Positions 11,637-59,987 of a DNA stretch of 64,000 nt are shown here, piece after piece; within the stretch, counting starts at the first letter, position 1, and each line of letters opens with the position of its first letter. The stretch covers positions 96,001 through 160,000 of the forward strand of contig JAHPZE010000003.1 of assembly GCA_019058365.1 (NCBI GenBank). Reading direction: 5' to 3'. The translations under genes were made by a program, and so were the position numbers. This stretch comes from Promethearchaeota archaeon (GTDB taxonomy: Archaea > Asgardarchaeota > Lokiarchaeia > Sigyniarchaeales > SOKP01). The notes below the pieces were generated by a model that saw nothing but the letters and a program-made list of their open reading frames with translations, searched no databases and was not told the DNA's origin.

Positions 11637-11744
11637 AGCGGGGTGGGCTAGCCTGGTTTATGCCGCAGGGCTCATAAGTTGCAGAAATTATTTCCATCTC
11701 ATTGGGAAACCCTGAGATCGTTCGTTCAAATCGAACCCCCGCTA
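11637..11744 (+). tRNA. tRNA-Met initiator (CAT), 32-nt intron at 37/38 (11677-11708)
   Basis: A1-U72 pair, GGG/CCC in anticodon stem, BHB central helix CTCA/TGGG. Confidence 0.93.
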
Positions 11745-11894
11745 CTATTTTCTATATATTTTTCTAGGGTGTTAGTAATTAACCTATACAAATATTTTAA
11801 GAAAAAGTGCCCTTAAATATTCTTAGCTTAATAATTACTTCTATATTAAAAAAAGATTTATTTTTAAAATATTAAAATAGGAGAAAGGTTTGAG

Positions 11895-26159: not shown

Positions 26160-26321
26160 TGCAGGGAGTGGGATTCGAACCCACGAAGAGCTATCTCACC
26201 GGATATCTCATTAGTTATTATGTTAATCAACGGATAATATAATAATCAGATCTTGAGTCCGGTTATTGAGGATTATTTTCCAAAAAAGTCCGGCACCGTT
26301 GACCAACTTGGTTATCCCTGC
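26160..26321 (-). tRNA. tRNA-Leu (CAA) with two introns: 32/33 (26257-26287) and 37/38 (26205-26251)
   Basis: Spliced form folds as class II tRNA (GCAGGGA/TCCCTGC, CCGGA-CTCAAGA-TCCGG); BHB helices CCGG/CCGG and CTCA/TGAG. Confidence 0.9.
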
Positions 26322-37477: not shown

Positions 37478-37587
37478 AAAACTGTTGGTCAATTTTTATG
37501 TTTTATTTAAATACCACTTATTTAATAGAGAAAAAGCTAAATAGTATAGTTAATAAAATAATATATCAATAAAAGTATTAAAAAAGC

Positions 37588-37788
37588 GCCTCCGTAGCTC
37601 AGCTAGAAAAACTACCGCTTTTCGGTGTGCTTGGCAAAGTAGAGCACCCGGCTTAGGTATTTGGCATTATTAAATACCTCCGGAAGTTAACCGGGCGGTC
37701 GCATGTTCGATCCATTCTAAGCAAGATTTCCTTGCTGCGGGAAATATTTGCGGGATATGTTCCGCAATTCCTACAGCCGGGGGCGCCA
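37588..37788 (+). tRNA. tRNA-Asn (GTT) with three inserts: D-loop (~37607-37638), 33/34 (37654-37685), 63/64 (37716-37775); CCA encoded
   Basis: Spliced form GCCTCCG TA GCTC AGCTAGGTA GAGC A CCCGG CTGTTAA CCGGG CGGTC GCATG TTCGATC CATGC CGGGGGC G CCA is a complete cloverleaf. Confidence 0.85.
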
Positions 37789-37815
37789 TTTATTTCTTTT
37801 ATGAATTTTTTTTCT

Positions 37816-44872: not shown

Positions 44873-44977
44873 TGGTGCTCCCGCCGGGATTTGAACCCGG
44901 GTCACCAGGGTGAAGGCCTAGCATTCAAGTATTTATTCAAGTATAATTATTGCTTGGCCGGACTACACTACGGGAGC
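44873..44977 (-). tRNA. tRNA-Glu (TTC), 27-nt intron at 24/25 (44924-44950); C at position 33; CCA encoded
   Basis: GCTCCCG/CGGGAGC acceptor, CTAGG-CCTTCAC-CCTGG anticodon arm, BHB helix CAAG/CTTG. Confidence 0.9.
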
Positions 44978-45102
44978 AAATTATTATTAAAACAATATAG
45001 GTATATTAATCTTTTAAAATCTTTGATTTGAAAGCTTTTAACTAATTATTAATGTTGTAATTAATTTTGGGTTAAAAATTTTATGAATCATAGTCTTAAT
45101 AA

Positions 45103-45220
45103 TGCGGGAAGGGAGATTTGAACTCCCGAACTCCTACGAGAATGGATTCTAAGTCCACCGCCTATGGTCAGCCATCGATCAAGCGCCTTACAGCCTTTGA
45201 CCAGACTTGGCAATTCCCGC
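45103..45220 (-). tRNA. tRNA-Leu (TAG), 33-nt intron at 21/22 (45164-45196)
   Basis: Class II cloverleaf, GTGGA-CTTAGAA-TCCAT, BHB helix GGTC/GACC. Confidence 0.92.
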
Positions 45221-52078: not shown

Positions 52079-52180
52079 TGGACCTGACGGGAATTGAACC
52101 CGTGACCTCTTGAATGCAAGTCAAGCGTTGAAGGTTGGTATTAAATAGAACCTTACAATCTTCCACTGATCTACAGGCCC
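52079..52180 (-). tRNA. tRNA-Ala (TGC), 30-nt intron at 24/25 (52128-52157)
   Basis: G3-U70 pair, CTTGA-CTTGCAT-TCAAG, BHB helix GAAG/CTTC; directly downstream of 16S. Confidence 0.93.
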
Positions 52181-52363: not shown

Positions 52364-53857
<1,494 letters not shown>

Positions 53858-59631: not shown

Positions 59632-59795
59632 AATTTATAATTAAAATTGTATAATTTTTAAATAATCCTATATTAGTGTATATTTAATAATTCACTAATG
59701 TGGATTAGGTCGAATTTAGGTCATATTAAATTTTTTAAATTATCTAAATTTATTTATTATAACATTTTTGAATTCATAAAAGATACAAAATTTCT

Positions 59796-59907
59796 GCTTC
59801 TGTAGTGTAGTCCGGTCAATCTAACTTAGTTATCAATATACTATGATTAGGATTAAGCATACGAGGCTCTCACCCTCGGAACCCGGGTTCGAATCCCGGC
59901 AGAAGCA
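59796..59907 (+). tRNA. tRNA-Glu (CTC), 37-nt intron at 21/22 (59820-59856)
   Basis: GCTTCTG/CAGAAGC acceptor, CGAGG-CTCTCAC-CCTCG, BHB helix GGTC/GATT. Confidence 0.92.
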
Positions 59908-59987
59908 TTAATCTATACATATTTTTCTTTTTCTTAACTTAAAGGATAAGTTATCTAAATTTTGAATTAGAGGAATAACTTATTTGC

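Follow-up and report, generated by a model that had tools for sequence, protein, structure and literature searches.

A tRNA-Asn gene of a Lokiarchaeia-type archaeon with four predicted introns, one probably nested within another

A tRNA-Asn gene interrupted at three sites

The DNA analysed here is a stretch of 64,000 nucleotides (the window) from the assembly of a Promethearchaeota archaeon that comprises 4.74 Mb in 54 contigs with 29.5% G+C, and that is rated 100% complete from its marker genes. On the forward strand of the window, positions 37588-37788 carry a tRNA-Asn(GTT) gene with an encoded CCA. The gene is interrupted by inserts at 37607-37638 (32 nt, between tRNA positions 18 and 19), 37654-37685 (32 nt, 33/34) and 37716-37775 (60 nt, 63/64). 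When the three inserts are taken out, 74 nt plus the CCA remain, which ARAGORN calls as tRNA-Asn(GTT). An uninterrupted tRNA-Asn gene is present in two species of the genus (G007 and G008), and the predicted spliced product shows no mismatch to the one of G007 (L019), which itself scores 64.9 bits against RF00005 over the full model at a cut-off of 29. This bears out a preliminary description of the locus, which had proposed a tRNA-Asn with three inserts of 32, 32 and 60 nt.

The exons are distributed as follows. Exon 1 (37588-37606), identical to the intron-less L019, contains tRNA positions 1-18, i.e. the 5' strands of the acceptor stem and the D-stem and the D-loop up to G18. Exon 2 (37639-37653) contains positions 19-33, as seen from the spliced alignment with the intron-less orthologue. 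Exon 3 (37686-37715) covers positions 34-63 with the anticodon GTT, the variable loop, the 5' strand of the T-stem, the T-loop and the CAT of the 3' strand of the T-stem, according to ARAGORN and the spliced alignment. The sequence, ARAGORN and the spliced alignment agree on exon 4 (37776-37788), with positions 64-73 (the GC of the T-stem, the 3' strand of the acceptor stem and the discriminator G73) and the CCA. The gene is preceded by an AT-rich block at 37533-37570 (AAAGCTAAATAGTATAGTTAATAAAATAATATATC), which occurs once in the genome and is a probable BRE/TATA promoter; near-identical blocks lie before the gene in most relatives. A T-rich tract at 37789-37800 (TTTATTTCTTTT) follows it and is probably a transcription terminator. 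T-rich tracts are found after the gene in relatives too.

With default settings ARAGORN called no tRNA in the whole 64-kb window, and Rfam gave no tRNA match at 37588-37788 at E<=10. Standard finders thus miss the gene, so that on their evidence the genome would seem to lack an essential tRNA.

Similar observations were made for other genes of this organism. Just 25 tRNAs lie above the Rfam cut-off in an assembly with so high a completeness rating; standard finders arrive at about 25-30, and ARAGORN sees tRNAs only in its intron mode. On inspection by eye, non-canonical positions are occupied by inserts of about 30 nt, from one to several per gene, in most tRNA genes of the genome. The tRNA genes in the window surveyed in this way are located at 11637-11745, 26160-26321, 44873-44977, 45090-45200, 52079-52180 and 59795-59908. 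Outside the window, on the minus strand of another contig (G000:C34:25470-25700), lies a tRNA gene with the acceptor GGGCCAT..ATGGCCC and TAT or CAT as apparent anticodon. It contains an insert in the D-arm (about 51 nt) and one behind the anticodon (about 47 nt), either of which is long enough for a composite intron. The rRNA genes in the window are unlinked, the 23S gene (1-2215) and the 16S gene (52365-53856) lying on the same strand 50 kb apart, and the intron-containing tRNA gene at 52079-52180 adjoins the latter.

The locus is apparently the functional tRNA-Asn(GUU) gene, and the sole one, of this Lokiarchaeia-type (Promethearchaeota, Asgard) archaeon. We take it as functional and essential because its exons are unmatched elsewhere in the assembly, and because the upstream block is conserved among orthologues and unique in the genome. 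A search of the 54 contigs for a second tRNA-Asn matched the exons nowhere else, and the sole other GTT-bearing stem-loop of the assembly lies outside any tRNA context. The additional tRNA-Asn gene that the preliminary description had regarded, in combination with a lack of mature transcript, as fatal to its reading was therefore not found in the assembled DNA. A decaying pseudogene, with asparagine decoded by a copy that is absent from the assembly, is scarcely credible: such a copy might be sought in the fragmentation into 54 contigs and in the mere 25-30 tRNAs that standard finders see, but once spliced the gene has all four stems, G18G19, the T-loop TTCGATC, G73 and the CCA intact. Moreover, its exons are identical to those of orthologues across the genus, its promoter block is conserved, no other Asn exon is present in the assembly, and the form with the 60-nt insert has been kept in six species genomes and eight metagenome contigs.

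The two 32-nt inserts could be assigned to introns of the BHB type. The mature D-loop of the intron-less orthologues reads AGCTAGGTA, which places intron 1 (37607-37638) between G18 and G19. Its boundaries had at first been called ambiguous, since those that restore G18-G19 seemed to clash with the best helix, GCTA/TGGC. This helix was rejected, as it would leave the D-loop without G18G19; the orthologous loop points to the register AGCT/GGCA, a relaxed BHB with bulges AG|A and AA|G, which does restore G18G19 and is paired across alleles. Among 16 distinct alleles, position 16 of this central helix (H) is C-G, T.G or T-A and position 17 is T.G or A-T, with 4/4 pairs in five alleles and 3/4 in the window. 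As pairing is kept through these changes, we consider the helix to be real and its register to be the one that restores G18G19. Intron 2 (37654-37685, 32 nt, between U33 and G34) was found by a BHB scan. It has an H of 4/4 pairs (CCGG/CCGG), 3-nt bulges (CT|T and AA|G) and an inner hairpin of 10 bp, and is devoid of an outer helix (HBh' type). Its site and its H recur unchanged in 15 distinct alleles, the hairpins of which differ.

When L005, L006, L011-L013 and L037 were compared with the window (37607-37638), D-arm introns with the core ACCGCnnnnnGGTGTGCC were seen at 22/23 in some species and at 18/19 in others. A related intron is thus found at two sites separated by 4-5 nt, with a separate BHB at each, which looks like intron sliding or re-insertion.

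Two-step geometry of the insert at 63/64

The ends of the complete 60-nt insert give 0/4 central-helix pairs. The same was found in 12 of 12 alleles that carry an insert of this length, in agreement with the preliminary description, according to which these ends do not form a BHB. With a solver that lists every removal of the insert in one or two BHB steps, no one-step solution was obtained (H 0/4) and exactly one two-step solution, in which the inner intron is 37745-37774. A two-step solution of any kind was present in only 3 of 4000 dinucleotide shuffles of the insert, and shuffling of the inner 30 nt retained a BHB at the same sites in 16 of 4000 cases.

In the inner BHB, the outer helix (h) consists of 2 bp between GC (37737-38) and GC (37776-77), and H of four pairs, including one G.U, between GGGA (37739-42) and TCCT (37769-72). 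The two bulges are of 3 nt, AA|T and AC|A, and h' is 8. The motif gc-GGGA-aa|t...TCCT-ac|a-gc, as it had been described before, is therefore present; to call it strict was slightly generous, because the hairpin joins H via a small irregularity. The 30-nt inner, or nested, intron contains the hairpin TTGCGG/CCGCAA. The segment 37716-37744 makes up the first 29 of the 30 nt of the outer intron, with the hairpin AGCAAG/CTTGCT, and its last nucleotide is A37775. The inner intron is thus situated one base ahead of the 3' end of the outer intron.

With 37745-37774 taken out, ATCC-AT|T and GGAA-AA|G face each other at the outer site, which then has 3/4 pairs and a hairpin of 6 bp. The earlier proposal that removal of the inner intron creates GGAA-aa|g, able to pair 3/4 with ATCC-at|t, is confirmed by this computation, with the hairpin in addition. 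The outer BHB is weak: H contains an A.A mismatch, the outer helix is a single base pair, and a 2x2 internal loop precedes the hairpin. In relatives, the plain 30-nt introns at the same site, which must be spliced, similarly combine a 3/4 central helix with an outer helix of 1 bp. All four introns of the gene are relaxed BHB forms, none of them a textbook hBHBh'. The G-run of the outer intron serves twice, first (GGGA) as the H5 strand of the inner BHB and subsequently (GGAA) as the H3 strand of the outer BHB.

Three other registers of the inner intron were considered and rejected. Excision of 37746-37773, derived from the MFE helix GGGAA/TTCCT, yields neither an outer BHB nor the 3' end found in relatives, and the same is true of 37746-37775. 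A shorter inner BHB that makes use of a second GGGA (17 nt, 37758-37774) leaves no usable outer motif upon removal. Unconstrained MFE folding does not produce clean BHBs and favours a 5-bp GGGAA/TTCCT helix with a 4-nt bulge; the exact cut sites are consequently deduced from the BHB rule and from agreement with relatives. When the acceptor stem was enforced, the conformer with the inner BHB was 2.8 kcal/mol more stable than a competitor with ATCC/GGGA paired, and it is within 2.2 kcal/mol of the unconstrained optimum.

That the 60 nt are released in one step seems unlikely. EndA would have to read each splice site as a half-site (bulge plus helix) and cut at 37715|16 and 37775|76, the inner piece being a mere expansion. 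It is true that relaxed motifs, for instance BHL and HBh', are cleaved by (alpha-beta)2 enzymes that possess the specificity loop (PMC3241643; PMC5829648), and in the unspliced RNA the 5' site can lie in a bulge beside ATCC/GGGA, but no helix puts 37775|76 in a bulge, and a one-step excision was rejected on account of its central helix of 0/4 in every allele. The inner piece, moreover, is fixed at 30 nt and has a conserved BHB while its interior drifts, neither of which a passive expansion would need, and A37775 is invariant, as expected for a bulge base of a later motif.

It is very unlikely that the insert consists of two introns side by side, a 29-nt one (37716-37744) removed first via ATCC/GGGA and a 31-nt one (37745-37775) thereafter, or that its three sites are cut in any order. 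The ATCC/GGGA helix has 3/4 pairs, equal to the final outer helix, and would direct cuts at 37715|16 and 37744|45, the latter being the very bond of the inner 5' site. Yet the remaining 31 nt would be without a BHB to the exon (ATCC against CCTA, 0/4), and if all three sites were cut and the ends then joined, the T-stem would retain a surplus A. The lower stability of the ATCC/GGGA conformer (by the 2.8 kcal/mol given above) and the length of the plain introns of relatives, 30 and not 29 nt, also argue against it. The ATCC/GGGA route would end in a useless product, so that the present reading presupposes faithful splicing.

Orthologues and the proposed order of splicing

Orthologues were collected by BLAST of the 201 nt against 60 relatives and subsequently against all 54 genomes of the genus, and by pattern scans of metagenome contigs. 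From the species genomes of the genus and the metagenome contigs, 37 distinct tRNA-Asn alleles were compared by spliced alignment. Their intron content is very different. Besides the uninterrupted genes, alleles with an insert at 63/64 were found. Only two lengths of this insert occur, 30 nt in 5 alleles and 60 nt in 12. The nested 60-nt form, present in six species of the genus and eight metagenome contigs, amounts to 12 distinct genes.

The plain 30-nt intron at 63/64 was seen in L011, L012, L014, L015, L018 and L022. It has a hairpin of 6-7 bp, a loop like GATTTCC and the 3' end GGGxAAA|G (for example ACATTGCTCGATTTCCAAGCAATGGGGAAA in L014, and ...GGGAAAA in L011 and L012), and its H pairs 3/4 or 4/4 with bases 58-61 of the T-loop and T-stem. 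Positions 37716-37744 together with 37775 give 30 nt of precisely this build, ending in GGGAAA+A, at the same site and of the same length. Taking out the inner intron restores GGGAAAA|G, the 3' end that the plain introns have in L011 and L012.

The 12 nested alleles all have an inner piece of exactly 30 nt with 4/4 pairs in H (GGGA with TCCT or TCTT) and 2/2 in h, and the final A of the insert is invariant among them. The same unique two-step solution, with the inner intron at insert positions 30-59, was obtained for 10 of the 12; the other two have kept H (4/4) and h (2/2), and their hairpin is interrupted. Over 11 nested alleles the inner intron is variable at 19 of its 30 columns, and its stems differ yet pair (TTGCGG/CCGCAA, TCGTG/CACGA, TTCGCA/TGCGGA and TTCGT/ACGGA). 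Such variation fits an RNA that is selected for its shape and not for its sequence. The outer intron is variable at 3 of 30 columns in the six species found by BLAST, all three in the loop. This low variation fits a double constraint, as its G-run would serve two motifs in turn.

An allele with only the outer intron, or a partly spliced intermediate, was looked for by pattern scans with the present outer-intron sequence in the species genomes and metagenome contigs; all 13 matches were the 74-nt nested form. A weak match in another family (G052) was discarded, as it is not a tRNA.

The comparison suggests that the gene contains four BHB introns at three sites, the inner one of which is probably, and by necessity, removed before the outer one. 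The preliminary description had arrived at the same picture of an intron within an intron, with ordered splicing and four excisions, and it now gains support from the plain 30-nt introns of the orthologues at 63/64 and from the conserved inner BHB. We infer the cleavage sites and the order of the cuts from this geometry as follows. The primary transcript, if the gene is expressed as its surroundings lead us to expect, would span the region from the conserved AT-rich promoter to the T-tract. In this transcript the GGGA of the outer intron would pair with the TCCT of the inner intron, and G64-C65 of the exon with the GC at 37737-38. EndA could then cut three introns directly, i.e. intron 1 (18/19), intron 2 (33/34) and the inner intron (37745-37774). 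Because the inner intron splits the 3' bulge and the H3 strand of the outer intron, the bond 37775|76 would be without a motif until A37744 is joined to A37775, a reaction expected of RtcB.

The resulting intermediate would read ...GCGGGAAA-AGCCGGGGG. After joining, the G-run (as GGAA) would pair with A58-C61 of the T-loop and T-stem, so that AU|U and AA|G come to lie in 3-nt bulges; only at this stage would A37775 enter the outer 3' bulge (AA|G), as its second base. Finally, the outer intron of 30 nt would be cut out and U63 joined to G64, with GATCCAT-GCCGGGGG as the mature junction. The total would be four excisions, with the inner one ahead of the outer 3' cut. This order predicts that two introns of 30 nt are excised (often circular in archaea) instead of one of 60 nt, that a single intermediate junction (A37744-A37775) occurs, and that the outer cut is strictly dependent on the inner one. 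A census that compares such genes with compact ones counts the 60-nt insert as one intervening sequence, and consequently arrives at too low a number.

Some alleles would require five excisions (L003/L038, L044, L045, L049 and L050, from G022 and metagenome contigs). In these, the outer 63/64 intron has its H5 strand divided by an intron of 31 nt at 59/60. As the nested intron interrupts it as well, the outer intron would have to wait for two others. Alleles of this kind would be good substrates for studying the limits of multi-step RNA processing by the (alpha-beta)2 endonuclease and RtcB.

Splicing enzymes, known systems and turnover of the introns

Two EndA paralogues are present in the genome, both of which match PF01974 and PF02778. 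The alpha paralogue (198 aa, C26) aligns end to end without gaps to the alpha subunit of Aeropyrum pernix (3p1z_B), and it has kept the Tyr/His/Lys triad and the equivalents of the Crenarchaea-specific loop residues K44 and R46. In the A. pernix enzyme this loop confers a broad substrate range (PMC3241643). The beta paralogue (206 aa; G000:C12:101662-101910, L032) has retained the Tyr and the Lys and has a Ser at the position of the catalytic His, as expected of what would be a structural beta subunit. It is closer to the M. jannaschii enzyme than to crenarchaeal beta subunits. RtcB is encoded as well (567.6 bits). The genome therefore has the genes for RtcB and for what appears to be an EndA of the broad-specificity (alpha-beta)2 type, predicted to be able to cut relaxed motifs at non-canonical positions. 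An (alpha-beta)2 EndA with an L1 loop has been assigned to Asgard archaea (PMC5829648).

Nested introns and sequential splicing have been described for the multiple-intron pre-tRNAs of Crenarchaeota (Thermoproteales) (Sugahara 2007, RNA 13:671; Sugahara 2008; Tocchini-Valentini 2009, PNAS 106:20246; all as cited in PMC3728597 and PMC3978253). As related in these citing papers, the introns are BHB or BHB-like and lie at non-canonical positions, the endonuclease is an (alpha-beta)2 enzyme and the last BHB forms only once the other introns are gone and the RNA has been rejoined, much as proposed here. The present case differs in its host, a Lokiarchaeia-type Asgard archaeon, and in that both nested introns are uniform mini-introns of 30 nt. 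It differs further in the position of the inner intron, which lies inside the 3' bulge of the outer intron and re-uses the outer H3 strand as its own H5, and in the orthologue series within one genus (0, 30 and 60 nt) that documents the two layers. The locus is thus a well-supported further case of a mechanism that was already established (Crenarchaeota, 2007-2009), in a new lineage and with unusually good comparative support; with nested and ordered BHB splicing already on record, the idea is less novel than the preliminary description implied. What the locus offers is a clean candidate, documented by comparison, for an intron in an intron in protein-based tRNA splicing, in the archaeal group that is closest to eukaryotes.

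The tRNA genes of Asgard archaea are known to be heavily interrupted (Valentin-Alvarado 2024, PMC11291895; Goswami 2026, bioRxiv 10.64898/2026.10.13.758758). As in the present genome, tRNA genes with many BHB introns (up to five) at non-canonical positions, and with D-arm introns that standard finders overlook, were encountered in these studies. Repeated gains are reported in them, and here intron content differs between close relatives. Their focus, on the other hand, is on Freyr-, Jord- and Atabeyarchaeia, and other Asgard families are rated as less interrupted. None of the terms 'nested', 'sequential' and 'ordered' is used in bioRxiv 10.64898/2026.10.13.758758, and 'nested' is absent from PMC11291895 as well.

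In the nuclear pre-tRNAs of Cyanidioschyzon merolae the removal of several BHB introns is ordered, as demonstrated by RT-PCR of intermediates, and the order follows the stability of the BHBs (Soma 2013, PMC3728597). There, each BHB can form on its own, and nesting of the introns is explicitly denied by the authors, whereas in the present gene the outer motif is absent until the inner intron is gone. In Euglena chloroplasts, group II and group III introns occur within introns as twintrons, the inner one being spliced before the outer one. Twintrons are self-splicing ribozyme introns, in contrast to the 30-nt BHB introns considered here, which are spliced by proteins; the likeness is one of logic and not of ancestry. 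The term twintron occurs in PMC8393795.

The distribution of the introns within the genus was compared with an RtcB tree computed by maximum likelihood for 30 genomes. In this tree the nested alleles are not united in a single group, and strongly supported branches force at least three changes. The genome of the window groups with G027 and G031 (99% SH-aLRT), both of which have the 59/60 intron instead. The relatives to which it is closest in RtcB (96-97% identity) and in flanking DNA lack an insert at 63/64 and have an intron at 59/60: the DNA around the gene is most similar (84-91% identity) to that of G027 (L016), G031 (L010) and G005 (L027), all in the 59/60 state. The nested allele is common to more distant species, and intron sets are patchy on the tree. 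The set of introns in tRNA-Asn is therefore subject to turnover among close relatives, while the position of the gene is unchanged. The outer intron hardly differs between any of the nested alleles, and for this reason we regard it as more likely that the form arose once and alleles were exchanged thereafter than that it was invented repeatedly, although one gene tree cannot prove this.

BLAST of each of the four introns against the whole genome gave only chance matches of 12-18 nt. It is conceivable, albeit doubtful, that the 30-nt mini-introns of this Lokiarchaeia genus are mobile and favour BHB-type bulges, including those of existing introns, so that the nested pair would be the footprint of an insertion, and that tRNA alleles or intron sets are exchanged between species by recombination. 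The scattering of the nested allele on the RtcB tree and the 59/60 intron of G027 and G031 at the same syntenic locus are consistent with this. The lack of a copy of any of the four introns elsewhere in the genome speaks against it, and a tree of a single gene is weak evidence for transfer.

A different gene arrangement was observed in L014, L015, L022 and L028. Here, tRNA-Asn is located about 10-15 nt downstream of another tRNA gene, the 3' end of which reads ...GGTTCAAATCCCGGTAGGAGCA, and it is without the AT-rich promoter block. In these loci tRNA-Asn is probably co-transcribed with the upstream tRNA.
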